The notes under the pieces: generated by a model | Database searches by the model: none | What the model saw: only the letters and a program-made list of their open reading frames with translations | Told to the model about the DNA's origin: nothing | Made by a program: the position numbers and the translations under genes | DNA from: an uncultured Gemmatimonadales bacterium | GTDB taxonomy: Bacteria > Actinomycetota > Acidimicrobiia > Spongiisociales > UBA5794 | Direction of reading: 5' to 3' | Length of the DNA stretch: 64,000 bases | Assembly: GCA_964195945.1 (NCBI GenBank) | Contig: CAXMRC010000150.1 | Location: 16,400-80,399, forward strand | In this document: one piece after another, positions 847 to 58,219 of the stretch | Layout: each line of letters starts with the position of its first letter | Position numbering within the stretch: the stretch's first letter is position 1

Positions 847-1764
847 ATGATCAAGACACCAACGAGACGCTTGTTACGCACGCGGCGGTCTTTGGTACCG
901 CTGTTCTCGCTCGCCGGTGTCCTGGTGGTGGCTTCGCTTGGCATCGCGCTTGCGGCAACAACCACGACCTTCTATCTGAAGGGAGCCGGAGTACCCGTTG
1001 CACCTCTTGCCCAGACTGTCCCATCAAGCGGAATTCTTCCCAACTACGACGCTGGCCGAGACGATGCACCAGGCCTGCTAATCCAAAAAGGTGGTGGAGA
1101 GCAGGAAACTGATCCAACGAAGCACCAAACGTGGCTGGCAGCGGAGGGTGAGCTGATCTTGGATGGACCTGCGACTCTCACATTGTGGAGTGCGATGAAG
1201 GACTTCGACACCGATAAGAAGGGGCAGATAAAGGGCTATCTTCTGGATTGCAATCCTTCAGGGTCAGATTGCTCAGTGATCACCAGCGCGGCTCGTGGCG
1301 CCAACCCTTGGAACACAGAAACCGGCTGGGTTGCTCGAACTATCGACTTCGGAACGGTTCTTCACACGGTTGCTGTCGACCGCTCCTTGGCAGTGAAGCT
1401 GGTGGTGACCAACCAGGCTCACGACGACATGTGGTTCGCCTATGACACGGTTTCCTACGCCAGCGCCCTAAGCGTGCGGGTCATGTCGCCACCACCGACA
1501 GCCACCACGACAACAACCACAACCACGACACCGCCGTCCCCTACCACTACGACAACGACCACAGCGCCGTCCACTACCACGACGACAGCTACAACACCGC
1601 CGCCGTCCACTACCACGACGGCACCGGTTGTTGCTGCAGTAGAGGTCCCCCCTTCGACAACAGCGCCAGACGATCCGTTGCCTGCAGAAGACGTTGCGAT
1701 GGACCCACTTCCCGCTCGCGGCAGCGACGAGCGCCAAGGAGGGTTGCCAGGGAGGCCTCCTTGA
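847..1764 (+). CDS. Secreted or membrane-anchored hypothetical protein with a long Thr/Pro-rich linker
   Basis: N-terminal Arg-rich region followed by a hydrophobic helix (LFSLAGVLVVASLGIALA). Thr/Pro tract PPPTATTTTTTTTTPPSPTTTTTTTAPSTTTTTATTPPPSTTTTAP, typical of actinobacterial O-glycosylated linkers. No recognisable catalytic domain. Confidence 0.55.
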   Translation: MIKTPTRRLLRTRRSLVPLFSLAGVLVVASLGIALAATTTTFYLKGAGVPVAPLAQTVPSSGILPNYDAGRDDAPGLLIQKGGGEQETDPTKHQTWLAAEGELILDGPATLTLWSAMKDFDTDKKGQIKGYLLDCNPSGSDCSVITSAARGANPWNTETGWVARTIDFGTVLHTVAVDRSLAVKLVVTNQAHDDMWFAYDTVSYASALSVRVMSPPPTATTTTTTTTTPPSPTTTTTTTAPSTTTTTATTPPPSTTTTAPVVAAVEVPPSTTAPDDPLPAEDVAMDPLPARGSDERQGGLPGRPP

Positions 1765-3874: not shown

Positions 3875-5332
3875 CTATTCGATCGTCGAATTGATGACTT
3901 GGATGGGTCCGCTGCCCAAATAGAAGATCCCAGGGAACCCACTTGTCTCGAACCCGTCGCTTGGATTGCGGGCCAGCGTGGAATCCTCAATGCGCAGGGT
4001 GCCGCTGCGGTCGTTGCTCACAAAGAAGATAGCGCCCCCACCTTCGTTCGCATGGTTGTCTGCGATGACGGTATCGATGATCGTTAGTGTGAACGTGTTC
4101 CCGTCGTTGTAGATAGCTCCCCCGCTGCCACCACCAGGGGTGCCCCCTTGGGCTGGGTTGGCCCCGTCACCGATCGCCAGATTGTGGGTAAACAGGCTGT
4201 TGATCACGGTGTACGACACGCCGATGCTGCTGAGGCCACCCCCATTTGAACATACATTGCCGTAGCCCTCTCCCCCACCGAAGGTGCTGTTGACGATATA
4301 CACGGGTAGCCCTTCGTATTGGCTGAAGACACGGACGGCGGCACCGCCAACGTCAGGGCCGACATCGTCACAGACATTGTTGAAGAACCGAGAGTTGACG
4401 ATCTTGAATCGTCCCCCGCGAACCCAGATCGCACCGCCGCCGTCTGGCTCGTCACCCTTGGAATTGCCGTCGATGAAGGTCAGGTTCTGTACGGTGAGCC
4501 GAGGATGGTCCTGGTTCTGGCAATGCGACGTTGTCCAGACAAGATCCTGGTCGCACGTATTCATGTAGAGGATCCGGTTCTGGCCTCTGCCGCTGAGTGT
4601 GACCAGGCCACCGCCATCAATCACGATCTCAGGCCCCGTGTCGTTGAATACCTTGGCCTCCTCCACCATCTCGATCGTTACGGGGTCGGGACCGCAATCG
4701 AACACGATGATGCCCCCTTGGCCGACGGCCGCAACCACCGCTTGCGAGGTGCAACTCTCCGACGTGCCGTCCCCGATGACAATGCCTGGGTTGGTTACGT
4801 CCTCGGCCCGTCCTTCGGCCGGCACCGGAGCGGTCCCATCTGGATTTCCGGTTGGTGGCCCCGGCCGCGGCAGCGGGACTATTGGAGTGAGTCCTAGACC
4901 GCGCGTGAGAAACGTTGCCATCTGCTCTCGCAACACCGGATCTGATGGGCAGAACAGGTCGTTGTCCGGCGGGTTGCACCCTTTGGTGATGCCTGCTGCG
5001 GCGAGACGGTTGATGGAGTCCTCAAAGACTCCCTCGGCATCTGCAAACGGGGTGGCTGCGGTGGCGGGCAGGTCGAGCGCCCGAACCAAGAATGCCGCCA
5101 TCTGACCACGGGTCACCGAGTCTGATGGGCAGAACAGGTTATTGTCCGGCGGATTGCAGCCCTTGGTAATCCCCTGGGCGGCGATCGCTTCTATTGCGCC
5201 CTCATGTGCGCTGTTGTCGTCATCGAGAAACGATCCGCCGGGTGCGAGGTCAGCCACTGCTGCACCACCAGCCACGACTGCCGTCACAACCAAAACGAGA
5301 GCTGCCAAACCGGAGCGGAATCTGTTGATCAT
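3875..5332 (-). CDS. Secreted right-handed beta-helix protein (Pmp-type GGAI/FxxN repeats) with two N-terminal Cys-containing SLH-like repeats
   Basis: Start moved to MINRFRSGLAALVLVVTAVVAGGAAVA (signal peptide). Two repeats ...AAxGITKGCNPPDNxLFCPSDxVxRxQMAxFLxRxL. Pro-rich linker. Many GGAI...FxxN / NSxF repeats (GGGAIWVRGG, GGAIYNDGN, GGGAIFFVSN), as in polymorphic-membrane-protein or pectate-lyase-like beta-helices. Confidence 0.8.
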   Translation of the reverse strand: MINRFRSGLAALVLVVTAVVAGGAAVADLAPGGSFLDDDNSAHEGAIEAIAAQGITKGCNPPDNNLFCPSDSVTRGQMAAFLVRALDLPATAATPFADAEGVFEDSINRLAAAGITKGCNPPDNDLFCPSDPVLREQMATFLTRGLGLTPIVPLPRPGPPTGNPDGTAPVPAEGRAEDVTNPGIVIGDGTSESCTSQAVVAAVGQGGIIVFDCGPDPVTIEMVEEAKVFNDTGPEIVIDGGGLVTLSGRGQNRILYMNTCDQDLVWTTSHCQNQDHPRLTVQNLTFIDGNSKGDEPDGGGAIWVRGGRFKIVNSRFFNNVCDDVGPDVGGAAVRVFSQYEGLPVYIVNSTFGGGEGYGNVCSNGGGLSSIGVSYTVINSLFTHNLAIGDGANPAQGGTPGGGSGGAIYNDGNTFTLTIIDTVIADNHANEGGGAIFFVSNDRSGTLRIEDSTLARNPSDGFETSGFPGIFYLGSGPIQVINSTIE

Positions 5333-7040: not shown

Positions 7041-8261
7041 ATGCGGACAGATACCCTCTCGCTGCGCCAGCAAAGCCAATTACACGACGATTGGCTCATT
7101 GCCAGGTTGACCACCATCGTTCCGATGCTCATGGAGAGGGCGGGAATCGATTGTTGGGTCCTGATCGCTCGCGAATATAACGAAGACCCCGTGGTCAAGA
7201 CCATGCTGCCCGCAACGTGGCTGAACGCCCGCCGTCGCACCATCTTGGCCTTCACCGCTTATGGCGCTGAACGGGCGGCCATTTCTCGCTACGGCGTTGG
7301 CGCCGCGTTCCCAGCCGGGTGGTCGCCGGAGGAACAGCCAGACCAGTGGGTGCGCCTTGCTGACTATCTCCGCGAGAAGAATCCGCAACGGATCGCGATC
7401 AATCGATCGGCTACGTTCGCACTCGCTGATGGAATGAGCTCTGCAGAGTATGAGGCTATGGCTGCTGCGCTCCCAACGGATCTTCGATCTCGACTCGAAC
7501 CTGGCGACGAACTAGCAATCGGGTGGTTGGAGACGAGGACGCCGGAAGAGATGGACGTCTATCCCGATGTTTGTTCACGGGCTCACGAAATCCTGAGAAC
7601 GGCATTGTCGGCAGAGGTCATTCAGCCGGGAGTCACCACGACTCGCGACGTCGAATGGTGGTTGCGCCAGGAGGTGGAATATAGGGGCTATGGCACCTGG
7701 TTCCATCCATCGGTGTCTCGTCAACACCCGACTCCCAGTGCAGATGAGATCATTCAGCCGGGCGACTTCGTTCACATCGACTTCGGAATCGTCTACCTAG
7801 GTCTGCACACTGATCAGCAGCAGCACGCATACGTTCTGCGCCCTGGTGAAACCGGTCCCCCCGATGGGCTACTGAGGGGCATGGCTGCGGGCAACCGGCT
7901 CCAGGACATTGTGCTGAGCCACTTTCGTAGCGGGGCCACGGGCAATGACATCCTGCGGGATGCGCTCCACGAAGCTCACGCTGCAGGGCTGGAGGCGACC
8001 ATATACAGCCACCCCATTGGGGTACACGGGCACGGTGCCGGTCCCACGATTGGTCTGTGGGATCAGCAAGATGGTGTCCCCGGCGCCGGCGACCATCCGG
8101 TAGCGGCGGACACTGCCTACTCGATCGAGTTGTCGGTTCTGGTTGATGTCGCAGAGTGGGGCGACCAGAAGGTACGCATCATGCTTGAAGAGGACGCCTA
8201 CTTTGATGGCGAGAGCATCCAGTTCCTCGACGGGCGGCAAACGGATCTCTGGCTGATCTAA
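7041..8261 (+). CDS. M24 family metallopeptidase (Xaa-Pro aminopeptidase/creatinase-like)
   Basis: HIDFGIVYLGLHTDQQ, IYSHPIGVHGHGAGP, EEDAYF are the pita-bread fold metal-ligand motifs. The ORF upstream of the M at 7041 overlaps the thioesterase and was trimmed. Confidence 0.8.
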   Translation: MRTDTLSLRQQSQLHDDWLIARLTTIVPMLMERAGIDCWVLIAREYNEDPVVKTMLPATWLNARRRTILAFTAYGAERAAISRYGVGAAFPAGWSPEEQPDQWVRLADYLREKNPQRIAINRSATFALADGMSSAEYEAMAAALPTDLRSRLEPGDELAIGWLETRTPEEMDVYPDVCSRAHEILRTALSAEVIQPGVTTTRDVEWWLRQEVEYRGYGTWFHPSVSRQHPTPSADEIIQPGDFVHIDFGIVYLGLHTDQQQHAYVLRPGETGPPDGLLRGMAAGNRLQDIVLSHFRSGATGNDILRDALHEAHAAGLEATIYSHPIGVHGHGAGPTIGLWDQQDGVPGAGDHPVAADTAYSIELSVLVDVAEWGDQKVRIMLEEDAYFDGESIQFLDGRQTDLWLI

Positions 8262-8359
8262 GACACAGCCGCAAGCTAGCCATGTCGGCTAGGGCTCAAC
8301 GTCACCAAAGGTTCCACCCTTCGCGCCGGGATTCTTCTCGGTTTGTCAGATACGATCTT

Positions 8360-9145
8360 TCAATGTTCAGACCCGCCGACAGTGAGCCAGCCGAGACACT
8401 CCGCGTCGTTCGCGAGGCAATGGGAACTGCCGTGACCATGGCCTTTCGGTCACCGGTGACCGATGATCTAGTCGACGGTGCCTATGCCCGGATCGAGCAG
8501 ATTGAGGCCTCCTTCAGCACATTCCGACCCGATAGCGAGATCAGTCGGATCTCTCGCGGCGATCTTGCCGAGAGCGACGCTAGCGCCGAAGTACAAGGAG
8601 TCCTGCAGAGCTGCGCATCACTGCGTGTCCGTACCAACGGATGGTTCGAATTCGAACCCATGGACAAGGATGGTCGACGACTCGACCCTGCCGGCTACGT
8701 AAAGGGCTGGGCGGTAGAGCAGGCGATGGATTCGCTCACCGCGTCCGGGATAGCCGACGTCTTCATCTCGGCCGGGGGCGACATCGTTGCCCGATCATCC
8801 AGTGCGCCATGGCGTATAGGCATCCAGCATCCACACGACCAAACCGCGACGGCGGCAACTCTCCTCATCAGCAACGAGGCGGTCGCAACATCCGGCCTCT
8901 ACGAACGGGGTGCCCACATATGGGGAAAGACCGGTAGCCCCATTGCCGGTCTCCTCAGCGTCACGGTTGTTGGACCCGAGCTTGGAATTGCCGATGCGGC
9001 AGCTACCGCCCTGTTTGCCGCCGGCGACTCGCTCACTCCCGTGCTATCGAGATTTCCGGGATACGAGGCGTTGGTGATTACCGACAACGATGAGGTGCGG
9101 TGGACGACGGGGCTCTCCTCGAAGCTGGCGTCGTCAGCCGACTGA
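8360..9145 (+). CDS. apbE: FAD:protein FMN transferase (ApbE family)
   Basis: MGTAVTM, DPAGYVKGWAVEQA, SAGGDIV, ATSGLYERG, ADAAATALF are conserved ApbE motifs. Confidence 0.75.
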   Translation, partial: SMFRPADSEPAETLRVVREAMGTAVTMAFRSPVTDDLVDGAYARIEQIEASFSTFRPDSEISRISRGDLAESDASAEVQGVLQSCASLRVRTNGWFEFEPMDKDGRRLDPAGYVKGWAVEQAMDSLTASGIADVFISAGGDIVARSSSAPWRIGIQHPHDQTATAATLLISNEAVATSGLYERGAHIWGKTGSPIAGLLSVTVVGPELGIADAAATALFAAGDSLTPVLSRFPGYEALVITDNDEVRWTTGLSSKLASSAD

Positions 9146-9203
9146 CCACAACCCATCGGCCCACAGTTGGTTACGCTCCAAGCACGCCTGCCAGGAGCAT
9201 GAC

Positions 9204-10487
9204 ATGCCCGGAATACCACTTGGCCCGTTTGCGGATGACTCTGCTTATGCCGAAGCAGTCGCCCGCGACGGCACCGACCCGTTGCGCCAGTTCCGATCAG
9301 AGTTTGCGGCACAAGATCCCAGCCTGATCTACCTGGACGGGAACTCGCTGGGGCGCTTGCCGAACAGGACCGTGGAACTGATCCGGGACACGGTAGAGAA
9401 CCAGTGGGGAACGCGACTGAATCGATCTTGGCGAGAACGCTGGTGGACCCAAGCCGACGCCATCGGCAGCATGATTGCACCCATCGTTGGCGCCGGCGGA
9501 AGCGACGTGATCGTCGCCGACTCAACATCAGTGGCTCTGTTCAAGCTGACTGTTGGTGCGTTGCGAGCGCGTCCCGATCGCGGCCGCATACTGACCGACG
9601 ATCTCAATTTCCCGACTGATCTCTATGTCACGTCGGCAGCCGCGGACCTTGCCGGCGGCCGCGAGGTTGTGATGGTTCCCTCGGCCGATGGCATCGCCGG
9701 GCCAGAAGATGCTCTGCTTGCGGCCCTCGATGACGACACAGCCCTCCTTACTCTCTCCCATGTCGCCTTCAAGAGTGGCTATCTCTACGACATGGAACGT
9801 CTTACGAAGGCTGCCCACGATGTCGGCGCACTGGTGCTGTGGGATTTGAGCCATTCCGTTGGCGCCGTCCCGATCGATCTCACCGCAGCCGGGGTTGACC
9901 TGGCTGTCGGGTGTACGTACAAGTATCTGAACGGCGGCCCAGGGTCCCCGGCGTTCCTATATGTCTCCCGCTCCCTCGATATCGAGAATCCTCTTTCTGG
10001 CTGGTGGGGCCATACCGACCCGTTTGCCTTCGACACAGAATACGAACCGGCCGCTTCCATCAAACGGTTCCAGACCGGAACGATGCCGATCATTTCCATG
10101 GTCGCCATCGAACCCGGCGTGACCTTGACCGCCAGGGCTGGGATGGATGCGATAAGGACCAAGTCCGTTGCGCTGAGCGAGTTCTTTGTTCAGCTCAGTG
10201 ATCGACTTCTAGAACCGCTCGGTTTCACGGTTGCCTCTCCGCGAGACCCGGAGCAAAGAGGTTCCCACGTCTCGATGCGACACGCCGACGGCTGGCGCGT
10301 AAGCCAGGTGATGATTGACCACGCCAACCTGATCCCCGATTTCCGTCCTCCCGACAACATCCGCTTCGGGTTCGCACCGCTGTACACCAGCTTCCTGGAT
10401 GTCCACACAGCAGTCCTCCGCATCACTGAGCTGTTCGCAGCAGGCACTATGGCGCGGTATTCGTCGACGCGCGACACGGTGTCGTAG
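9204..10487 (+). CDS. kynU: Kynureninase
   Basis: CTYKYLNGGPGSPAFLYV and the PLP-enzyme fold. Start at MPGIPLGPF. Confidence 0.85.
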   Translation: MPGIPLGPFADDSAYAEAVARDGTDPLRQFRSEFAAQDPSLIYLDGNSLGRLPNRTVELIRDTVENQWGTRLNRSWRERWWTQADAIGSMIAPIVGAGGSDVIVADSTSVALFKLTVGALRARPDRGRILTDDLNFPTDLYVTSAAADLAGGREVVMVPSADGIAGPEDALLAALDDDTALLTLSHVAFKSGYLYDMERLTKAAHDVGALVLWDLSHSVGAVPIDLTAAGVDLAVGCTYKYLNGGPGSPAFLYVSRSLDIENPLSGWWGHTDPFAFDTEYEPAASIKRFQTGTMPIISMVAIEPGVTLTARAGMDAIRTKSVALSEFFVQLSDRLLEPLGFTVASPRDPEQRGSHVSMRHADGWRVSQVMIDHANLIPDFRPPDNIRFGFAPLYTSFLDVHTAVLRITELFAAGTMARYSSTRDTVS

Positions 10488-13134: not shown

Positions 13135-14451
13135 ATGAAATCCCTCATCGCCACTGCATTTCTGACCGCAAGTCTCTTTGTGATCGCCCCCTTGGCCACG
13201 GCACAAGCCGCAGACTCTGAGCCGGCAAGCACGGAGGACCTGTGGTACCCACCGTCGTCTAACGGGTCAACCAACATTGCGTTCTACTTCGTGTTCTCGG
13301 AGACATGCTCCCATTGCGCTGAAGCAGAGCCGTTTATTGATCACCTCGAGTCCACCTATGACTGGCTCGAGATCAGCAGGGTCAGCACCCAGGAGGCGAC
13401 AGATGAAGAAATCGACACGGCTCTAACGCTTGCAGACGATGTCGGCGAAGATATCGTTGGCGTGCCAACATTTCTGTTTTGCGAACGTATGGAAGTGGGT
13501 TTCGACACAATTGAGACCACGGGTGCCAGCATGGAAGAGGCTCTAGTTGGCTGTCACAACGCGGTCGCGGGCGCAGTCACCGAGGCGGACGCAACCGACG
13601 AGGACGATCTCCACGTTCCCATTCTTGGCGACATCGACGCCAACGCAGTCTCGCTGCCACTCTTTACGGTGGCGATAGCCAGTCTCGACGCGTTCAACCC
13701 ATGTGCGTTCTTTGTGCTCCTATTCCTTCTCAGCCTCCTGGTGCACGCAAGAAGCAGATGGCGGATGGCGCTGGTGGGTGGGGTTTTCGTCGTGATCTCG
13801 GGTGTTATGTACTTTGCGTTCATGGCGGCGTGGCTCAATGTGTTCCTGGTGACTGGACAGCTGCGCTGGGTAACCACGGTCGCCGGCCTCATTGCGGTGA
13901 CCCTTGCAGTGTTCAATATGAAGGATTACTTCTTCCCTGACACCGCGGGATCTCTCTCCATCCCTGAATCCGCCAAACCGGGTTTGTTCGCCCGGATGCG
14001 GAAGCTGACGACCGGCGATGCCATGCCAACAGTTCTGTTGGGAACCATCGCATTGGCAGCCGTCGCCAATAGCTATGAACTCCTCTGCACAGCAGGCTTT
14101 CCTCTCGTCTTTACTCGAGTGCTCACACTGAATGATCTGCCAACGTCGACCTACTACGGCTACCTGGCGCTCTACAACGTTGTATACGTGATCCCTCTGA
14201 TGACAATTGTCGGCGTATTTGTGTGGACGCTGGGATCTCGCAAGCTGTCCGAGAACGAGGGCAAGTTCCTCAAGTTGATGTCGGGGACCATGATGCTGGG
14301 GCTGGGACTGTTGCTCCTCCTCAAGCCAGATCTCCTCGAAAACATGCTGGCCGCAGTCGGCATCATGGGACTCGCCATCGTCGTGGCTATTGCGATCTCA
14401 TACGTTGAGCGCCGCCGACGCCGGGCTGCAGCAGACGTAAAGGCCGGATAG
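13135..14451 (+). CDS. Fusion protein: secreted thioredoxin-fold domain (CSHC) joined to a CcdA/DsbD-like transmembrane thiol-disulfide transfer domain
   Basis: Signal peptide MKSLIATAFLTASLFVIAPLATAQA. CxxC motif (ETCSHCAEAEPF) and VGVPTFLF. Then 6 TM helices with Cys in TM1 (FNPCAFFVLLFLL) and a later TM (LLCTAGFPLV), as in DsbD_2/CcdA. Confidence 0.6.
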   Translation: MKSLIATAFLTASLFVIAPLATAQAADSEPASTEDLWYPPSSNGSTNIAFYFVFSETCSHCAEAEPFIDHLESTYDWLEISRVSTQEATDEEIDTALTLADDVGEDIVGVPTFLFCERMEVGFDTIETTGASMEEALVGCHNAVAGAVTEADATDEDDLHVPILGDIDANAVSLPLFTVAIASLDAFNPCAFFVLLFLLSLLVHARSRWRMALVGGVFVVISGVMYFAFMAAWLNVFLVTGQLRWVTTVAGLIAVTLAVFNMKDYFFPDTAGSLSIPESAKPGLFARMRKLTTGDAMPTVLLGTIALAAVANSYELLCTAGFPLVFTRVLTLNDLPTSTYYGYLALYNVVYVIPLMTIVGVFVWTLGSRKLSENEGKFLKLMSGTMMLGLGLLLLLKPDLLENMLAAVGIMGLAIVVAIAISYVERRRRRAAADVKAG

Positions 14452-14535: not shown

Positions 14536-15909
14536 CTAGCCGAGAGCGCGGTGCAAAAAGGCTGCCATCTCGGCCCTGGTCACTATTGAGTTGGGACAGA
14601 ACCGATCATTCTCGGGCGGGTTGCACCCCTTGGTAACGCCCGCGGCCGCCAGCGCCTCGATCGCCGATTCGAAGATCGAACCATCGTCGTCTGTGAAGCT
14701 GTCCCCGCCCGGGTCAACGTAGGAGAATGCACGCACCAAGAACGTGGCCATCTCGGCTCGGGTCAGGTTGCGATCAGGGCAGAAATTGGTGTTGGCGGGT
14801 GGATTGCAACCTTTTGTGATGCCAGCCGCGGCCAATGATTCGATCGCTCTCTCAAACAGCGAATCGTTGTCATCGGCAAACTGATCAGTCCCACCCGGGT
14901 CGGGTAACGACAATGCACGAGTGAGGAACGCGGCCATCTCGCCCCTGGTCACACCGTCCGTAGGGCAGAACCGGTCATTGGTGGGCGGGTTGCACCCTTG
15001 TGTGATGTTGGCGCTCGCCAACCAAATGATGTCGGACTCAAAGACGGAACTCTCGTCGTCGCGGAATGGCGGCACAAAGAACTCGGTGTCGTTACAGCCG
15101 ACGCGTTCCGGGCCAAAGGCCAAGGAATCGAAGTGGATTTCGTTGTCGACCAACGATGCCTCTCCGCCGTAGTAGATGTCGAACCAGAAGCTTTTGATGT
15201 CAATGTCAGGTTCAGTCGCTCTTCGGAACGCGATGTCACTCTTCGCAAAGGCTTCGGTGCCATCGACCCAGCCTTGCAACGTTCCGTCGTGTACCCCTGG
15301 CGTGTTGAGATCGATGCGACCCTCGACGCAATACCACCTGCCGTGGTCGAGGGTCGCCACATCGGGATCCCATGTCCAGATATCCCCGCGCGTTGCCGGA
15401 CTGTCGAGGTGATAGACGTAGAAACCGATCAAAGTCTTGTCATCCGGCCCATTCGGATACCCCGGCTGACCAAAGCTGGGATATGTACGAGAGAACAGCA
15501 TCCTGGCCGAGAAACAGGGCTCCTCGGGTGTTGAGGGGCGGCCCCCCAGACAGTTGTAGTTGTAGAGCCCAGCGACACCGGGAAGCTTGCCTCGATTGGG
15601 CGGCTCAACATAGAAACCCTCGGGGAACTGCACCCAGTAACGCCACCACAGCTCCTCAGGATCGCTGAGCCCGTGATCGGAAAAATCCCAATGACCGCTG
15701 CTCCCCCAGTGCTCGCCCGCGGGGATTACCGAGAGCAGTCCCGGTCCATCATGGCCAGCGGCGAGCGGAAGCATCCCCCAGCCGCCTGAGAAGACGTTCG
15801 CCGTACCGTCGCTAAATGACTCGTCAACCACAGTATTCGGGGCGTCGGCGCTGGCAGGTACAAGGCCAAGGAGCATGACGGCCAGTGCCACCGGAATCAT
15901 CCGTCTCAT
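14536..15909 (-). CDS. Secreted jelly-roll (concanavalin/polysaccharide-lyase-like) domain protein with three C-terminal Cys-containing SLH-like repeats
   Basis: Signal peptide MRRMIPVALAVMLLGLVPASA with GGGAGA SD. Unclassified N-terminal domain (GTLQGWVDG, FWFDIYYGG). Three repeats F.DD..S.FE..I..LA.AGITKGCNPPxNxxFCPxxxVTRxEMAxFLxRAL. Confidence 0.8.
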   Translation of the reverse strand: MRRMIPVALAVMLLGLVPASADAPNTVVDESFSDGTANVFSGGWGMLPLAAGHDGPGLLSVIPAGEHWGSSGHWDFSDHGLSDPEELWWRYWVQFPEGFYVEPPNRGKLPGVAGLYNYNCLGGRPSTPEEPCFSARMLFSRTYPSFGQPGYPNGPDDKTLIGFYVYHLDSPATRGDIWTWDPDVATLDHGRWYCVEGRIDLNTPGVHDGTLQGWVDGTEAFAKSDIAFRRATEPDIDIKSFWFDIYYGGEASLVDNEIHFDSLAFGPERVGCNDTEFFVPPFRDDESSVFESDIIWLASANITQGCNPPTNDRFCPTDGVTRGEMAAFLTRALSLPDPGGTDQFADDNDSLFERAIESLAAAGITKGCNPPANTNFCPDRNLTRAEMATFLVRAFSYVDPGGDSFTDDDGSIFESAIEALAAAGVTKGCNPPENDRFCPNSIVTRAEMAAFLHRALG

Positions 15910-17335: not shown

Positions 17336-19015
17336 TTAGCTTTCAGGACGCTCGGCAGTCGGCACGGCGACTCGCGCGGTGCGTCTCGCGAAATAGAAGA
17401 TGCGCTTGAGATGGGCGATCAAGTCGGTCTCAAGACCATAGGTTTGGATTCGATTCGGCTCATCGGCAACCAGCCGTTCTGCCTGGTGGCGGTCCGCCTT
17501 TTTGGCGATGGAGTTGATCTCGCTCTTCATAGCCGCCACTCGCCGCGCCGCATTCTCGTTCTTCTGCGTTACGGCAAGCATCGCAAGCTCGAAAGCCTCC
17601 TTGACACCGTCATGCAGTTCAAATATATATTCGGCGGTTTCCCGGCTTACCACGATGTCCTGTTCGATACGCGAGACACCGAGCTGAACGAGGTTCGTTT
17701 CGATGATGTCGCCAATCGCCTCGAGGTTATTGGTCGCCTCCATCAACTGGAGCAACTCCTCAGAGTCGCGTGATCCCAGCTCTTCCTTGCTCAACTGCCC
17801 CAGGTAATGAAGAATCGAGCCATACAGCGAGTCGACCTCATCGTCCATCGCTTCGATGGTCACGAGATCGGCGTTGCTCCCTGAGATGACCGCGGGAACG
17901 ACGTCTGTGAGCATCCTGCGAACCCGCTCTGCCAGACGCAACAACTCGAGTCTTGCTCTATCCAACGCCAGACTCGGCGTGCTCATCAGGCCCTTATCCA
18001 GGTACCGGGGGCGCACGATCTCTGGTTCGATTCGATCGGGAACGAGGCGCACAACGAGAGCCGCAAACTGTTTGCTAAAGCCCAAGAACAGCACCGTATT
18101 CGCGACGTTGAAGATGGTGTGGGCATTGGCAATCTGCCGGGCGAGGCCTCCGCCGAGGCCTTCGACGAAACTTGCTAACTGCGGGATAAACAGCAGCCAC
18201 AGCAACACACCAAGGACATTGACGATGGTATGCACCCACGCAGCTCGCAGCGCATCGCGGGGCTTGCCGATGGCGGCGAGTTGGGCGGTTACGCTGGTAC
18301 CCACGTTGGCACCCATGATAAGGGCGATACCCGCTTCGATCCCGATCAGGCCCTGGAACGCAAGGGCCAGGACCACCCCGGTTGTTGCCGACGATGACTG
18401 GATCACCGCGGTGAAGATGGCGCCGGCAACGACACCTGCCAGCGGGTTGGACATCCCGGCCATCCAATTCTGGAAGGGCTCGTAGTCGCTGAGGGGCACC
18501 ATGGCATCACCCATGACGGACATCCCGAAAAAGATCATGCCCAACCCGAGTATCAGCCCCCCTTGGGCGCGACGTTCCTCGTTCTTCGATAGGAACCGGA
18601 TCCCGAACCCGACCGCAAGAAGCGCCAGGGCGTAGCGGGACACCTTGAACGCAATGATTTGCGCGGTGATCGTGGTGCCGATATTGGCACCCATGATTAC
18701 GCCGACCGACTGTTCGAGGGTCAGCAGTCCCGCAGTGATAAAGCCGACGACGAGCACAGTAGTGACCGATGACGATTGAATCACCGCAGTCAGTCCGGCA
18801 CCAGTGGAGGCCGCAGCAATGCGGTTCGATGTCAACTTGTTAAGGATGCCTCGCATGCGGTCGCCGGCCAGCGTCCGCAGCGAACGCGTCATCCGGTCCA
18901 TGCCCATTAGGAAGAGAGCCAACCCTCCAAAGAGACCGCTGAGCACCAAGAACGAATCGATCGAAACAGCCGCGCTGGTCGCATCCGCATATGAGAGAAT
19001 CACTGATCCCACCAC
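17336..19015 (-). CDS. Na+/phosphate cotransporter (NptA family) with C-terminal PhoU-like domain
   Basis: Duplicated MGANIGTT/MGANVGTS motifs. C-terminal helical PhoU-like region. Confidence 0.85.
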   Translation of the reverse strand: MVGSVILSYADATSAAVSIDSFLVLSGLFGGLALFLMGMDRMTRSLRTLAGDRMRGILNKLTSNRIAAASTGAGLTAVIQSSSVTTVLVVGFITAGLLTLEQSVGVIMGANIGTTITAQIIAFKVSRYALALLAVGFGIRFLSKNEERRAQGGLILGLGMIFFGMSVMGDAMVPLSDYEPFQNWMAGMSNPLAGVVAGAIFTAVIQSSSATTGVVLALAFQGLIGIEAGIALIMGANVGTSVTAQLAAIGKPRDALRAAWVHTIVNVLGVLLWLLFIPQLASFVEGLGGGLARQIANAHTIFNVANTVLFLGFSKQFAALVVRLVPDRIEPEIVRPRYLDKGLMSTPSLALDRARLELLRLAERVRRMLTDVVPAVISGSNADLVTIEAMDDEVDSLYGSILHYLGQLSKEELGSRDSEELLQLMEATNNLEAIGDIIETNLVQLGVSRIEQDIVVSRETAEYIFELHDGVKEAFELAMLAVTQKNENAARRVAAMKSEINSIAKKADRHQAERLVADEPNRIQTYGLETDLIAHLKRIFYFARRTARVAVPTAERPES

Positions 19016-19092: not shown

Positions 19093-20235
19093 CTACAAGA
19101 CGGGGAGCCCCAAGCTACGGCTGATCACCAACCGCTGGATTTCGGAGGTTCCTTCGCCAATCTCGAGGATCTTGGCGTCCCGATAGAAACGAGCCACAGG
19201 TGAACTCTCCATGAACCCTGCTCCACCGTAGATCTGGGTCGCGATCCGAGTTGCCGAGACCGCCGCCTCGCTTGCGTAGAGCTTGGCCACCGCGGCAGCT
19301 TCTTTGATTGGTCGGCCTGCATCTTTCAATGCCGCGGCACGGTAAGTCAGCATCCGGGCTCCGTCGACCATGACTTTCAGGTCGGCACATTGGAAAGCAA
19401 CACCCTGATTGGCCCCGATTGGCCGGCCAAACGCGTGGCGCGTCTTGGCATAGTCAACCGAAAGCTCCAGACAAGCCTGGGCGAGCCCGACCGCAAGAGC
19501 AGCAATCGCAATCCTGCCGTCATCCAACGTCGCAAGAAACTGGTGAAAGCCGCGCCCCCTGGTACCAAGCAAGTTGTCGGCCGGCACGCGGCAATCCTCA
19601 AAGACGAGGCCTCGGGTGTCGGAGGCGTGCCAACCCATCTTCTTGTAGGCGGGCTCGACAATGAACCCGTCGCTACCCGCGGGCACGATGATCGACGAGA
19701 TCTCGCTGTCTCCGGTCCGCGCCGTGATGGTCACAACTGAAGTCATCTCGGTGCCGGCGTTCGTGATGAAGGCCTTTGACCCATTGATGATCCATTCCTC
19801 GCCGTCGCTGATCGCCTTGGTTCTCGTGGCTCCAGCGTCGGAGCCAGCCTCTGCCTCTGTTAGCCCAAAACCGGCAAGAGCCTGCCCCGCCAGCAGATCG
19901 GGAAGAAACCGTTCTTTCTGTTCCTTGGTTCCGTAGTTGAAAATCGGGTTGATACCGAGCCCAACACCGGCTTCAAGGGTGATTCCCATCGATTGATCAA
20001 CGCGACCAATCTCCTCTATGGCCACGCACAAGGACGTGAAGTCACCGCCCATGCCGCCAACATCCTCAGGAAATGGCAGAGCGAATAGACCAAGCTCCCC
20101 CATTCTCCGCACGGTGTCCGCAGGAAACGTCCCGGACTCGTCCCACTGTGCGGCATAGGGGGCTATCTCGCCTTCGGCAAAGTCGCGCACGACCTTGCGA
20201 AAGGCCTCGTGTTCCTCGCTCAGCTCAAATCTCAC
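19093..20235 (-). CDS. Acyl-CoA dehydrogenase (short/branched-chain type)
   Basis: QIYGGAGFMESSPVARFYRDAKILEIGEGTSEIQR and the ACAD fold throughout. Confidence 0.85.
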   Translation of the reverse strand: MRFELSEEHEAFRKVVRDFAEGEIAPYAAQWDESGTFPADTVRRMGELGLFALPFPEDVGGMGGDFTSLCVAIEEIGRVDQSMGITLEAGVGLGINPIFNYGTKEQKERFLPDLLAGQALAGFGLTEAEAGSDAGATRTKAISDGEEWIINGSKAFITNAGTEMTSVVTITARTGDSEISSIIVPAGSDGFIVEPAYKKMGWHASDTRGLVFEDCRVPADNLLGTRGRGFHQFLATLDDGRIAIAALAVGLAQACLELSVDYAKTRHAFGRPIGANQGVAFQCADLKVMVDGARMLTYRAAALKDAGRPIKEAAAVAKLYASEAAVSATRIATQIYGGAGFMESSPVARFYRDAKILEIGEGTSEIQRLVISRSLGLPVL

Positions 20236-54517: not shown

Positions 54518-56470
54518 ATGCGATGGCAGCCATCAGCTGGAGTCGCCGCAGGGTTCATGCTGGTTCTTGCGGCGTGCACCGGCGGAGTAGCTCCAACCAC
54601 GACCTTGGAGACCGGCTCTACTACCACCACCGCGCCTGCTATCGCTTCTTCCACTCCACCGAGCGACTCAACGACGAGTCCTCCTCCGACCCGGGTGCCC
54701 GTCGAGCCTGCCGACGTCGTCCTCTACAACGGCAGCATCGTCACGATGGACGATGCGTTCACAATTGCCGAGTCCGTCGCGATTCGAGACGGGACTGTGG
54801 TCGCCGTCGGCGCCTCTGACGAAGTCCTCGCCTATGTCGGCGGTGCCACCACTTCGGTCGACCTCGAAGGCCGCGTTCTGATGCCGGGGTTCGTGGACCC
54901 CCATACCCACCTACTGCAAGACCCCGCTCCAGATGTCGCCGCGATGCGTATCGCTCAGGAGCTCATGCTCGCCGGCGGGACCACGACGGCGGGGACTCCA
55001 AGCATCGAACCTGACGAGCTGGCGGCCTACCAGGCCATGGATGCAGCCGGAGAGCTGGCGGTGCGCAGCCACCTCTACGTTCTCTACAACACAGTGTGCG
55101 GTGGTCGAGAGTTCGGCGACTTCTATCTGGAGAACGAATTCTCCCGCGACCCCGACCTCAACCTTGCGGTAGCGGGCGTCAAAGTCTTCACTGACGGCGG
55201 TGCGTGTAATGCCCCGGCAATGTCGCTCGAGTACCTAGCGACGGCGCCGGACTACCTCAAGGAGGTCGGCTGGACGGGTCAAGGCACGTTGTATGTCGAC
55301 GCCGCCGAGGTAGCGAGCGTCGTCTCAGCCGTTGACGCTGCCGGCGGAATGACCGTGATCCATGCTATCGGCGACCGGGGAATCTCGACCGCGCTCGCCG
55401 GCCTGGCCGACGCGCTTGACGGCCAACCGTCAGCCAACCGGCACCGCATCGACTACAACAGCATGTCGACACTGCTCACGCCCGCCGAACTCGCCACATA
55501 CGGCGCCATCGACATGATCCCGGTCGTGATGTTGATGCCCTGGGGGTCGGCTTGTGACGAAGGTGTAGCCGAACTGTGGCAGGCGATCCTCCCCGAGCGT
55601 GCCGTCAATTCGATCGAGGACCGTCGAGCCATCCAGTCCGCCAACCCCGGCATCCGCCTTTCCTGGCACGGGGACTTCCCGTCCCTGCCGCACCTGCCGT
55701 TCCAGCAAATGTTCTCTGTGGTGGCGGGCGGCGCCGTCCACGTCGACACTTGGGAGCCGTGCCATCCAACGGCGTGGGATTGGTTCCCCACTGTCCCCCT
55801 CGAAGAGGCACTGAGAATGATGACAATCAACGCCGCCGCCGCCATGGGAATCGAGGAGAAAGTCGGTTCCATTCAAGTCAGCAAGGTCGCCGACCTCCTC
55901 GTCCTGGCAAACGACCTATTCGATCCAGACCCCGAAATCGCCATCGCCACCAACTATCCGCTGGTGACCATGATCGACGGTGTTGTCCAATACTGCACCG
56001 GAGACCTATGCGAGCGTCTGACCGGCGCCGCCGCGTCCCCCGTTCCCACCACCGAGGCGCCACCGCTCCACGCCGGCTGGACGCCGGTGGACCACCCAGT
56101 TGTCGATGCGGTGAGAGCGTCTCGAGAGTTCGAACCGGCGTCCCTGGCAGTAGATCAAGACCGGGATACGGCATGGATCGCCGGTGAGGGCCCACCCCAG
56201 TGGATCGAACTCGACCTGGGATCGTCGGACCGGGTCGAAAGCATCCGCCTGCTAGTCAGCCAGGATCCGGCCGGATTCACGGTCCACCAAATCTACGCCG
56301 GCCCCAGTCCGGATCCAACAAAGCTTGTAGCGGAGATCAAGGGCGAGACCGTTTCCGGGCAGTGGCTCGAGATCGATCTCGGCGTCGAAGCGCAGTTCAT
56401 CCGCATTCTCACGCCCGACACGCCGTCATGGGCCGCCTGGTTCGAGATCGAAATCCTGTTGTCGAGCTAG
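54518..56470 (+). CDS. Amidohydrolase-3 family lipoprotein with C-terminal F5/8 type C (discoidin/CBM32-like) domain
   Basis: Lipobox LVLAAC. Thr/Pro-rich linker. Metal-dependent hydrolase motifs (MPGFVDPHTHLL, HAIGD). C-terminal DRDTAWIAGEGPPQWIELDLG...FIRIL...FEIEIL is a discoidin jelly-roll. Confidence 0.8.
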   Translation: MRWQPSAGVAAGFMLVLAACTGGVAPTTTLETGSTTTTAPAIASSTPPSDSTTSPPPTRVPVEPADVVLYNGSIVTMDDAFTIAESVAIRDGTVVAVGASDEVLAYVGGATTSVDLEGRVLMPGFVDPHTHLLQDPAPDVAAMRIAQELMLAGGTTTAGTPSIEPDELAAYQAMDAAGELAVRSHLYVLYNTVCGGREFGDFYLENEFSRDPDLNLAVAGVKVFTDGGACNAPAMSLEYLATAPDYLKEVGWTGQGTLYVDAAEVASVVSAVDAAGGMTVIHAIGDRGISTALAGLADALDGQPSANRHRIDYNSMSTLLTPAELATYGAIDMIPVVMLMPWGSACDEGVAELWQAILPERAVNSIEDRRAIQSANPGIRLSWHGDFPSLPHLPFQQMFSVVAGGAVHVDTWEPCHPTAWDWFPTVPLEEALRMMTINAAAAMGIEEKVGSIQVSKVADLLVLANDLFDPDPEIAIATNYPLVTMIDGVVQYCTGDLCERLTGAAASPVPTTEAPPLHAGWTPVDHPVVDAVRASREFEPASLAVDQDRDTAWIAGEGPPQWIELDLGSSDRVESIRLLVSQDPAGFTVHQIYAGPSPDPTKLVAEIKGETVSGQWLEIDLGVEAQFIRILTPDTPSWAAWFEIEILLSS

Positions 56471-56624
56471 AGCGACCCCTCTCTCTCCAAATCACGCCTC
56501 CATCCTCCCCGAGCGCTGCCAATGAGACCGCAGCGGTCGTCGATTCCGAGCCCAACCCCTTGATCCACCGTCGGCCCCCAAGTTGCCGCGTTCGGTGCGA
56601 CGCTTCCACCACCGGCCAGACCGG

Positions 56625-57167
56625 TCAGGGGCACAAGCCCTCCGCTCCGGAGGCGCAGAACTCGGCGTGGCCGCCGATGATCGTGGCGAGAACGTCTATT
56701 TCCGGGATCGCATCGACCGCGACTTCGAGCGGGTTCGCTGAAAGCACGACGAAGTCGGCGTATTTCCCAGCCACGATGCTGCCGATGACGTCCTCCTGAT
56801 GCGCGGCGTACGCGCCTCTGATGGTCAGCATCTCAAACGCCTCTTGTACGGTGAGCCGTTGCGAAGCCTGCCATAGCTCGGGGACACGGCCGTCGTATGT
56901 CGTTCGGGTCACGCCTTGGTGCAACGCATCCATCGCGCGCCCGGTATAGCTTTCCCCCTCGCCGCCGGTACGCCACGGGGTACAGCACCACGGTACGTCG
57001 GTGTTGGCGATCAAGTAGATCCCGGAGTCGATCAAGTCCCGCCATCGGTTGGCCAACTGCTGTTGCTCGAGTGGGATCATCCGTGCGAACGACTCGTCCT
57101 GGATAGAGGCTGACGAGTTGAGCAGCTGGATGGAACCAAGGATTCCGAGCTCGGCCGTGTTCTTCAT
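56625..57167 (-). pseudogene. C-terminal fragment (about 180 aa) of an amidohydrolase-3 paralog; N-terminal catalytic half absent
   Basis: GSIVAGKYADFVVLSANPLEVAVDAIPEIDVLATIIGGHAEF parallels the C-terminus of the neighbouring amidohydrolase (GSIQVSKVADLLVLANDLFD...VTMIDGVVQY). Only 66 nt separate it from the upstream gene, so there is no room for the missing 350 aa. Confidence 0.55.
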
Positions 57168-57232
57168 TCTCTCGCGACCTTTTCGCGGACTCTTGCGTTA
57201 GAGCGAGCCTCCAACAAATCCAGTACGCACCA

Positions 57233-58219
57233 CTAAAGGTCCAGGCGTGATTGGAGCTGTCGCTCGATCTCCGCGACGGTCCACAAGCCCTCGAGGCGAT
57301 ACACGACCTTGCCATCGGGGTCGAGGAAGAAGAGCCAGGGCTCAGATTCCAACCCGAAGGCGGTCATGGCCGGTGACGGCTGGAAGCCGGCGAGCGCCGG
57401 ATCGGGCAAGCCGCTGAATGCCTCGGCGTACACGAAGTTCACCCGGTCGGCGTAGCGGGTCTGCACGTCGCCAACCATGTCGTATACCGGGCCGCAGAAC
57501 CTCGTCTCGCAAAACGCCGGCGTGGCGAGGAGAAACAGCGTGGGGTCGTCGTTGGCAAGAGCCTGGGCGAGACTCTGGCGATGCAGCTCAGGATTAGGCG
57601 ACTCCGCCGAGGTCAGCAGAGCTATGTCGCCGTCAACGTCCTCCAGCGTCGGTGTGTCGAGAGCGGGCGCCACCTCGCCCGGACCGAGAGTGTCCGTGTC
57701 CTCAGCTACCCGGAATCCGATGCTCTGGAACGCAGCCCCGCCATCGCTGAATCGGGCCTCCACCTCCAGCCCCCAGTCGCCGGCCCGGTTGAAGTCACGT
57801 TCGTGGGCGAAGATGGTGGTCAGGCCGTCTGGAGCCACGATTCGCTCGGCATCGACTTCGGATTCCAGGATCGCATTCTCAGGGTCGGTGAGGTCCCAGT
57901 AATGGAAGTGAACGGTGGCATCCGTTATCAGTACACCCTCCGCATCGAAGAGCCCCACGGCGAAGCGCGATGGGCCGACGACCAATTCCGACGGTACCAG
58001 TGCGACCGTCAGAGCGGCGGTCACCTCCTCGGGCGCCAGGTGGACATGCCCATCGTCGCTGTCTTCGTGTGCGTCGACGGTGTTCGACAATGGCTCTCCA
58101 AACTCGTTGCCGCCTTCGTCTGCAGATCCACACGCCGCAACGCTGAGCATCAGGGCGACCAGGATGACGTGTAAAGGTCCGGAGATGGACCGCCTCGATT
58201 GGGGAAGATGGGCTCTCAT
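57233..58219 (-). CDS. Two-domain lipoprotein with C-terminal thioredoxin-fold (SCO/TlpA-like) region
   Basis: Lipobox LMLSVAAC. C-terminal FLLATPAFCETRFCGPV...WLFFLDPDGKVV resembles SCO1/TlpA-type thiol or metal-binding folds. The N-terminal domain is unassigned. 4-nt overlap with the upstream gene. Confidence 0.65.
   Translation of the reverse strand: MRAHLPQSRRSISGPLHVILVALMLSVAACGSADEGGNEFGEPLSNTVDAHEDSDDGHVHLAPEEVTAALTVALVPSELVVGPSRFAVGLFDAEGVLITDATVHFHYWDLTDPENAILESEVDAERIVAPDGLTTIFAHERDFNRAGDWGLEVEARFSDGGAAFQSIGFRVAEDTDTLGPGEVAPALDTPTLEDVDGDIALLTSAESPNPELHRQSLAQALANDDPTLFLLATPAFCETRFCGPVYDMVGDVQTRYADRVNFVYAEAFSGLPDPALAGFQPSPAMTAFGLESEPWLFFLDPDGKVVYRLEGLWTVAEIERQLQSRLDL

Follow-up and report, generated by a model that had tools for sequence, protein, structure and literature searches.

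A cysteine-paired subtype of the S-layer homology domain in exported proteins of uncultured Acidimicrobiia

Introduction

The S-layer homology (SLH) domains of Sap from Bacillus anthracis (PDB 3PYW and 6BT4) and SpaA from Paenibacillus alvei (PDB 6CWC, 7SV3 and related entries) are the closest described relatives of the repeats reported in this work. These domains of Firmicutes consist of units of about 55-60 amino acids (aa) which are arranged in tandem triplets and fold into a three-pronged spindle. Their ligand-binding residues are SLH-Trp13, SLH-Gly29 in the GIIxG motif and SLH-Arg43 in the TRAE motif (PMC6081394). In SpaA, SLH-Trp13 stacks on the N-acetylmannosamine (ManNAc) ring, SLH-Arg43 and SLH-Gly29 contact the pyruvate carboxylate, and the groove-lining loop that follows SLH-Gly29 flips on ligand binding (PMC6081394). 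Here, we describe a variant with two cysteines in each repeat (Cys-SLH) which is carried by two genes, A and B, in a stretch of 64,000 nucleotides (the window) from an uncultured bacterium of the Acidimicrobiia (contig CAXMRC010000150.1, positions 16,400 to 80,399). No description of a Cys-containing SLH variant and no paper on surface-protein display in Acidimicrobiia were found in the searchable literature. The Cys-paired subtype appears to be undescribed, while such proteins are already labelled as SLH in databases.

Identification and fold of the repeats

A six-frame regular-expression scan of the whole window found five GC-x(3-14)-[FYW]CP cores following G[IV]T.G, all of them in genes A (5126-5161 and 4946-4981) and B (14962-14997, 14776-14811 and 14593-14628). 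The cores of these five repeats have the form GC-NPPxNxx[FY]-CP. No other Cys-SLH motif was found in the window, where the sole extra match (18493-18525) is unrelated and lies in a frame containing stops. An earlier reading made from the sequence alone had placed two repeats in the 3875..5332 protein and three in the 14536..15909 protein, and both these counts and its DNA coordinates of the repeats agree with the scan. Its consensus also agrees with a register-fixed profile built from 337 distinct repeats of related loci (F.DDdgs.Fe.dI..lAaaGiT.GCNPP.NdrfCPdd.VTRgqMAAFLvRAlg). The span of 3875-5332 given there is correct for gene A as a whole, but the repeats fill only 4892-5242. The same reading regarded the repeats as paralogous SLH-related modules that can be aligned in DNA, which was borne out with a mean column identity of 74% over the five repeats. 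However, this identity is concentrated on constrained codons and is the level that results from amino-acid constraint and codon bias, so it provides no evidence of recent duplication. Recent duplication or gene conversion between genes A and B was rejected on this ground.

Both proteins (34.7 bits for gene A and 56.8 bits for gene B) and all five repeats taken alone (21.3-30.1 bits) exceed the gathering cut-off of 20.8 bits of the Pfam SLH family (PF00395), and the E-values of the single repeats, which range from 4.6e-7 to 2.7e-4, exclude chance. In phmmer, the gene B module matches the Sap SLH structures 9g93, 3pyw and 6bt4 with E-values of 9e-9 to 3e-6. The AlphaFold2 (AF2) model of this three-repeat module, computed from a 117-sequence alignment, has a predicted local distance difference test score (pLDDT) of 95.6 and a predicted template modelling score of 0.90, with two helices in each repeat. 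A Foldseek search of the PDB with the model gave 3pyw as the best match, with template modelling (TM) scores of 0.81/0.84 and a root mean square deviation of 2.4 A, followed by 14 more SpaA and Sap SLH entries and no other entry below an E-value of 0.1. The predicted module shows the three-pronged spindle, in which a three-helix core bears three lobes. Furthermore, repeats of about 55 aa in tandem triplets were observed in gene B, and exactly three repeats were present in 107 of 120 and 126 of 140 homologs.

Based on the Pfam scores, the Sap matches and the predicted fold, the window repeats are regarded as genuine SLH domains. All testable features of SLH membership were observed except SLH-Trp13, and as this residue is not universal in SLH domains, its loss bears on ligand specificity and not on membership. 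The sequence-only reading had considered the repeat to lie outside ordinary SLH with its core replaced. This view is not supported in that form, as every copy passes the Pfam gathering score, the predicted fold is the canonical spindle, and SLH-Gly29 and SLH-Arg43, which are central to ligand binding, are retained.

The Cys-SLH modules resemble those of Sap and SpaA in their tandem triplets, in their predicted spindle (TM 0.71-0.84), in the G-I-x-x-G motif with its invariant second glycine, in the T-R-[AG]-[EQ] motif with its invariant arginine, and in their position at the terminus of secreted enzymes. They differ from Sap and SpaA in four respects: two invariant cysteines flank an NPPxN loop that is 3-4 residues longer, V or I followed by F or H replaces SLH-Trp13, an acidic DDDGS segment occurs where canonical domains have DV..HWA, and the hosts are Acidimicrobiia instead of Firmicutes. 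The identity to the solved Sap and SpaA structures is only 20-23%, and the Cys-SLH module is known here from its sequence and predicted fold.

The groove loop and its cysteine pair

In the 337-repeat profile, the second glycine of G-[IV]-T-x-G, which corresponds to SLH-Gly29, was found to be 100% conserved. The arginine of T-R-[GA]-[QE], which corresponds to SLH-Arg43, is also 100% conserved, with threonine before it in 81% of the repeats. The window repeats follow the first of these motifs except for repeat 1 of gene B, which has ANITQG. The first cysteine is located at SLH-30, directly after SLH-Gly29, and the second lies between a conserved phenylalanine and a proline. The loop between them carries a four-residue insertion compared with Sap repeat 2 and is about three residues longer by SLH profile numbering. 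Its sequence is almost invariant, with N (97%), P (100%), P (99%), a variable residue and N (96%). In addition, we noticed that the N-terminal segment of the repeat has the acidic pattern F-x-D-D-D-G-S-x-F-E (for example at 5198-5230 and 14670-14700 in the window) where the canonical SLH pattern is F-x-D-V-..-H-W-A. This DDDGS segment is possibly a cation site.

The two cysteines were observed to be present together in all the surveys. Both occur in 318 of 318 repeats of the 120 closest database proteins. Searches of species-representative genomes with Cys-specific peptide patterns gave more than 599 matching stretches, and in the best 80 of these loci a permissive hidden Markov model search of all open reading frames (ORFs) found 391 repeats with both cysteines, one canonical repeat with Y and G in their place (GLMVGYNNGNFGP) and none with a single cysteine. 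A further set of 140 representatives of 50%-identity clusters gave 449 of 451 repeats with the pair, where the two exceptions are an apparently garbled sequence and a repeat whose first cysteine is shifted by two residues. The overall identity of the proteins in these surveys is only about 50-60%. The pair is also kept when the intervening loop shortens from eight to five residues, as in GCDADSYCP, so that the loop takes the form C-x8-C or, in short-loop copies, C-x5-C. Summed over the surveys, about 840 repeats have both cysteines and none clearly has only one. Therefore, the PF00395 profile comparison proposed with the sequence-only reading gave a divided answer: the repeats score as ordinary SLH domains, yet their cysteines are conserved and not incidental substitutions.

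From this pattern we strongly infer one structural disulfide per repeat, which would staple the loop lining the groove. The presence of both cysteines or neither was observed in exported proteins, as both window proteins carry putative signal peptides and an even number of cysteines (10 each). Actinobacteria fold exported proteins oxidatively with MdbA/Dsb-like systems, and the exported proteins of aerobic members have even-biased, disulfide-forming cysteines, whereas Firmicutes exclude cysteine from their exported proteins (PMC2823432). This exclusion would explain why textbook SLH domains lack cysteine. The study in question (Daniels et al. 2010) reports proteome-wide statistics and Corynebacterium enzymes, without SLH domains or Acidimicrobiia. 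The sequence-only reading had considered a disulfide-bridged SLH domain to be an unusual anchoring solution, but a disulfide is expected in an exported actinobacterial protein.

The Cys-free repeat among the 392 found in the Acidimicrobiia loci (GLMVGYNNGNFGPDDPVTRGQ) is located in locus L016 at 19219-19548. Its presence shows that both types of SLH repeat can coexist in one genome.

Pyruvyl transferase genes in related genomes

Coupling between csaB and SLH proteins is known in Firmicutes and diderm Terrabacteria (PMC6801904; bioRxiv 2021.05.31.446380), and pyruvylated wall polymers without ManNAc are known in Actinobacteria (PMC6801904). A comparable arrangement was observed in relatives of the window genome. 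In locus L036, a gene on the plus strand (7164-9788) encodes an 875-aa fusion of a glycosyltransferase family 2 (GT2) domain with a PS_pyruv_trans domain (PF04230, 60.9 bits against a cut-off of 25.3) and lies directly upstream of three Cys-SLH genes on the same strand. These are followed by a nucleotide-sugar dehydrogenase which is closest to UDP-ManNAc dehydrogenase models, a glycosyltransferase family 1 (GT1) gene and a GT2 gene. Among the NCBIfam pyruvyl-transferase models, the best match of the fusion is CsaB (TIGR03609). The dehydrogenase and GT1 pair follows arrays of Cys-SLH genes in five loci, and N-terminal fragments of 53%-identical fusion homologs were found at the edges of L018, L032 and L035. 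Database names place homologs of the pyruvyl-transferase domain in Acidimicrobiia.

All five contigs with a pyruvyl transferase homolog (L036 and L082-L085) have Cys-SLH genes within about 6 kb, which is like the coupling of CsaB with SLH proteins and supports anchoring to a pyruvylated wall polymer, with the ligand itself being presumed. The proximity of pyruvyl transferase and glycopolymer genes in related genomes also resembles the csaB-tagA-tagO-slhA-spaA cluster of P. alvei (PMC6801904). L036 is thus a candidate wall-polymer cluster of Acidimicrobiia, although its enzyme is unlike CsaB in being fused to GT2. By analogy with these relatives, this particular genome would be expected to encode a pyruvyl transferase.

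Proteins that combine an M23 peptidase with Cys-SLH repeats were observed to recur beside the pyruvyl transferase genes (L082:10576-11655 and L083:2813-3898). The middle repeat of both has the short loop GC-x5-CP with its two cysteines kept.

Distribution of the subtype

A profile search of 1.84 billion cluster representatives returned 84,927 matches at E<=1e-3, a number that will include canonical SLH domains, 33,011 at 1e-10 and 5,715 at 1e-30, with the best 150 matches all above 355 bits. A word-indexed search gave 1,527 proteins at E<=1e-5 among the 8,000 candidates scored, and those homologs named by their source are 'S-layer homology domain-containing protein' of Acidimicrobiia or Actinomycetota. 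The best 80 loci all come from assemblies of uncultured organisms (79 labelled as metagenome-assembled genomes), most of them Acidimicrobiia or Acidimicrobiaceae. Several of these loci belong to the same genome, and up to six Cys-SLH genes occur in a 20-kb locus. The variant is therefore not peculiar to the two window genes, as it is found in more than 5,700 clusters at the strictest threshold and in many genes per genome. The module was found at either the N-terminus or the C-terminus, and its passengers include polysaccharide lyase family 14 (PL14), beta-helix, Excalibur, PKD, fn3, cupredoxin and GSDH domains as well as S8 and M23 peptidases. For a large group of uncultured Acidimicrobiia, Cys-SLH is the standard anchor.

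Proposed anchoring mechanism and alternatives

The reading that we favour, and hold to be probable, is that Cys-SLH is a lineage-specific SLH subtype of Acidimicrobiia with a disulfide-closed loop, which anchors exported enzymes to a pyruvylated wall polymer. A tandem array of three repeats such as that of gene B would fold into the canonical three-pronged spindle, and this spindle would tether a Sec-exported passenger enzyme non-covalently to a secondary cell-wall polymer that is pyruvylated and linked to peptidoglycan. The invariant arginine of T-R-[GA]-[EQ] and the invariant glycine of G-I-T-x-G would form the ligand groove as they do in Sap and SpaA. The groove loop after SLH-Gly29, lengthened by the NPPxN insert, would be closed by a disulfide between the cysteine at SLH-30 and the one between the phenylalanine and the proline. 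Cys-SLH is thus a lineage-specific variant of a known anchor and not a new kind of anchoring.

Several observations weigh against this reading. The Pfam scores of single repeats are barely over the threshold (21-30 against 20.8 bits), and precomputed annotation labels the SLH match as 'faint'. The two repeats of gene A cannot alone build an intramolecular trimer. The position of SLH-Trp13 is occupied by V (49%) or I (31%) in the 337 repeats, with F (83%) or H (15%) as the next residue. The S-S bond itself is inferred from the sequences. The L036 enzyme reaches 79.5 bits where the CsaB equivalog cut-off is 213.1, and its match covers model positions 124-294 only. Furthermore, no pyruvyl transferase gene was found in the 64-kb window by tblastn, so the suggestion of the sequence-only reading to look for csaB and a secondary wall polymer found nothing in the window itself, but was rewarded by the link to pyruvyl transferase and glycopolymer genes in related genomes.

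Some of these observations are accommodated by an ordinary SLH fold whose wall ligand is not the 4,6-pyruvyl-ManNAc of Firmicutes but another anionic or pyruvylated sugar of a polymer specific to Acidimicrobiia, or peptidoglycan itself. V or I at SLH-Trp13 together with the altered groove loop, which is 3-4 residues longer and nearly invariant, means that the ligand may differ from 4,6-Pyr-ManNAc, and the acidic DDDGS segment is among the groove changes that this explanation invokes. The GT2 fusion of L036 below the CsaB equivalog cut-off and the non-ManNAc polymers of Actinobacteria (PMC6801904) are also consistent with it. However, both residues in contact with the carboxylate of pyruvate are invariant, PS_pyruv_trans genes lie near Cys-SLH genes in five of five contigs, and the adjacent dehydrogenase is closest to UDP-ManNAc dehydrogenase models. 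A different ligand is therefore considered unlikely. It is also conceivable that the cysteines form no structural disulfide and act as free thiols or as a metal or redox site, for example as a switch that frees enzymes from the wall under reducing conditions, or that they cross-link molecules. The putative status of the bond and the thioredoxin-like CxxC membrane protein adjoining gene B (13135-14451) leave some room for this. Nevertheless, strict both-or-neither occurrence across loop lengths is the signature of an intramolecular pair, and a pair of thiols by itself is a poor metal site, with no conserved histidine or extra cysteine alongside them in the 337-repeat profile. The thioredoxin-like protein is encoded convergently to gene B and has no family assignment and no homolog near other Cys-SLH loci, while disulfides are general in exported actinobacterial proteins (PMC2823432), so we consider such a role very unlikely. 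The passing of the ordinary SLH model and the ordinary predicted fold would also be compatible with cysteines that are incidental substitutions without a structural role. As incidental residues would drift, whereas these are invariant and always paired in about 840 repeats, this explanation is almost certainly wrong.

Within the favoured reading of a lineage-specific, disulfide-closed SLH subtype, the stapled NPPxN loop and the loss of SLH-Trp13 could retune the module to a polymer specific to Acidimicrobiia, perhaps with redox-sensitive attachment. We regard this as a speculative and rather unlikely extension. Attachment might be redox-sensitive because the staple sits right after the glycine that flips on ligand binding. 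If the extension is true, the retuned module would represent a distinct SLH-ligand pair, with the polymer made by the GT2-pyruvyl-transferase fusion and the enzyme resembling UDP-ManNAc dehydrogenase.

Soil, freshwater and marine samples are rich in Acidimicrobiia, almost all of which are uncultured. Our results suggest that they use the ancient system of SLH domains and pyruvylated polymers on a large scale, with protein clusters in the thousands, many such genes in each genome and arrays that reach six genes, and in a disulfide-stapled form which fits the oxidative chemistry of protein export in Actinobacteria. The signature GC-NPPxN-x2-[FY]CP provides a simple marker for the surface proteome of Acidimicrobiia, which current profile annotation catches only weakly. 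The module may also serve as a more stable SLH scaffold for surface display. The accepted view of the mechanism of SLH anchoring is unchanged by Cys-SLH.

Genes A and B

The carriers are two unrelated secreted enzymes, as the sequence-only reading had stated, with a beta-helix passenger in gene A and a PL14 polysaccharide-lyase domain in gene B. Their features are listed in Table 1.

Table 1. Positions of the two Cys-SLH genes and their parts in the window
Feature	Span	Strand	Description	Basis
Gene A	3875..5332	-	Secreted protein, 485 aa from ATG at 5332	ORF list, Pfam, AF2
Gene A putative signal peptide	5252..5332	-	aa 1-27, MINRFRSGLAALVLVVTAVVAGGAAVA, cleaved before D	Read from sequence
Gene A Cys-SLH repeat 1	5072..5242	-	aa 31-87, core GCNPPDNNLFCP, TRGQ motif	Pfam SLH 23.7 bits
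Gene A Cys-SLH repeat 2	4892..5059	-	aa 92-147, core GCNPPDNDLFCP, LREQ motif	Pfam SLH 24.3 bits
Gene A Pro-rich linker and beta-helix passenger	3878..4891	-	aa 148-485, 6 conserved Cys	Homologs
Gene B	14536..15909	-	Secreted protein, 457 aa	Signal peptide, PL14-like domain, 3 C-terminal repeats
Gene B putative signal peptide	15847..15909	-	aa 1-21, MRRMIPVALAVMLLGLVPASA, cleaved before DA	Read from sequence
Gene B PL14-like jelly-roll passenger	15055..15840	-	About aa 24-285	PF21294, best stretch aa 188-251
Gene B Cys-SLH repeat 1	14908..15078	-	aa 278-334, core GCNPPTNDRFCP, TRGE motif	Pfam SLH 21.3 bits
Gene B Cys-SLH repeat 2	14722..14892	-	aa 340-396, core GCNPPANTNFCP, TRAE motif	Pfam SLH 25.1 bits
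Gene B Cys-SLH repeat 3	14539..14709	-	aa 401-457, core GCNPPENDRFCP, TRAE motif	Pfam SLH 30.1 bits

The longest ORF of gene A extends to 5437, and the database protein P0381, which is 100% identical to gene A, starts 13 codons upstream of 5332 in its NCBI model. A signal peptide was recognised by eye from its positive N-region, its hydrophobic core and its AVA cleavage motif, and AF2 places a low-confidence helix at aa 2-22. In addition to SLH, Pfam gives a Chlam_PMP repeat (21.9 bits), and the AF2 model (pLDDT 85.3) predicts a right-handed beta-helix for the passenger. The passenger has no informative Pfam family, and a fold search of the PDB returned only generic beta-helix matches with E-values above 1e-3.

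Compared with its closest three-repeat orthologs, P0382 and P0383, gene A has one in-register gap of 60 aa, and its repeat 2 corresponds to repeats 2 and 3 of the orthologs. As judged from this single gap, gene A is a two-repeat derivative that has lost one internal repeat, probably through recombination between the near-identical repeats 2 and 3. In AF2, its module forms two-thirds of the SLH trimer. According to a passage in a review (PMC5817068), two SLH motifs are enough for wall interaction in B. anthracis. The passenger of gene A (about 338-341 aa) shares 72-91% identity with over 100 database proteins, and all 8000 candidates scored in the search reached E<=1e-5. Three Cys-SLH repeats were counted in 45 of the 120 homologs listed, two in 23, one in 5 (some of them N-terminally incomplete) and none in 47, and the 23 homologs with two repeats show that two-repeat modules persist in nature. 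The three SLH-less homologs inspected, including those of Persicimonas caeni (FIV42_09260) and Polyangium sp., have lipoprotein-type N-termini instead, and the SLH module is therefore an exchangeable anchor. The conservation of the passenger across phyla is striking for a secreted protein without an assigned function.

In gene B, the Polysacc_lyase_14 family (PF21294) is matched at 56.5 bits against a cut-off of 27, which places the passenger in PL14 by its gathering score. The putative signal peptide ends in PASA before DA, and a GGGAG ribosome-binding site lies 5' of the ATG. Records of the exact protein exist in a Logan assembly and at NCBI, and the homolog P0012 has the same combination of PL14 and SLH.

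Neighbouring and other genes

The genes flanking A and B include those for a histidine kinase, an AlkZ-like glycosylase, an M24 peptidase, ApbE, a kynureninase, DUF1684, EamA, a PfkB kinase and GNAT. No operon link with neighbours was found, as these are unrelated housekeeping and transport genes.

The 438-aa product of the gene convergent with gene B (13135-14451, plus strand) combines a signal peptide and a thioredoxin-like CSHC motif with a multi-pass membrane domain that is reminiscent of CcdA/DsbD and contains two cysteines (AFNPC and ELLC). It weakly matches the TrbB thiol-disulfide isomerase and has no Pfam family match. Its orientation and the lack of homologs near other Cys-SLH loci leave a role as a dedicated oxidase unsupported.

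In L065 (8893-9462), a membrane protein of 190 aa that weakly matches DsbD_TM (18.6 bits) is encoded immediately upstream of a Cys-SLH gene, and homologs of it were observed in L011, L056, L069 and L074. It was rejected as a redox partner because it has zero cysteines. Four of these five loci also hold a protein of 600-1100 aa with a signal of the twin-arginine translocation (TAT) type and no Pfam family, which is located upstream of the DsbD_TM-like protein in L065, L056 and L069.

Elsewhere in the window, a 305-aa protein (847-1764, plus strand) was judged by eye to be secreted; its C-terminal tail is long and rich in Thr/Pro, and it matches no Pfam family. The gene at the window end (60362-64000, minus strand) is partial and encodes more than 1211 aa with cadherin-like/Big_9 domains. 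Its third-position GC content is 0.83 compared with about 0.68 elsewhere, and over the last 8 kb the GC content increases to 0.64. Before this partial gene lie three genes (54518-60291) with putative lipoprotein signals, recognised by eye, which encode an amidohydrolase carrying an F5/8 type C domain, a beta-propeller that has a YtkA-like domain and one product without assignment.

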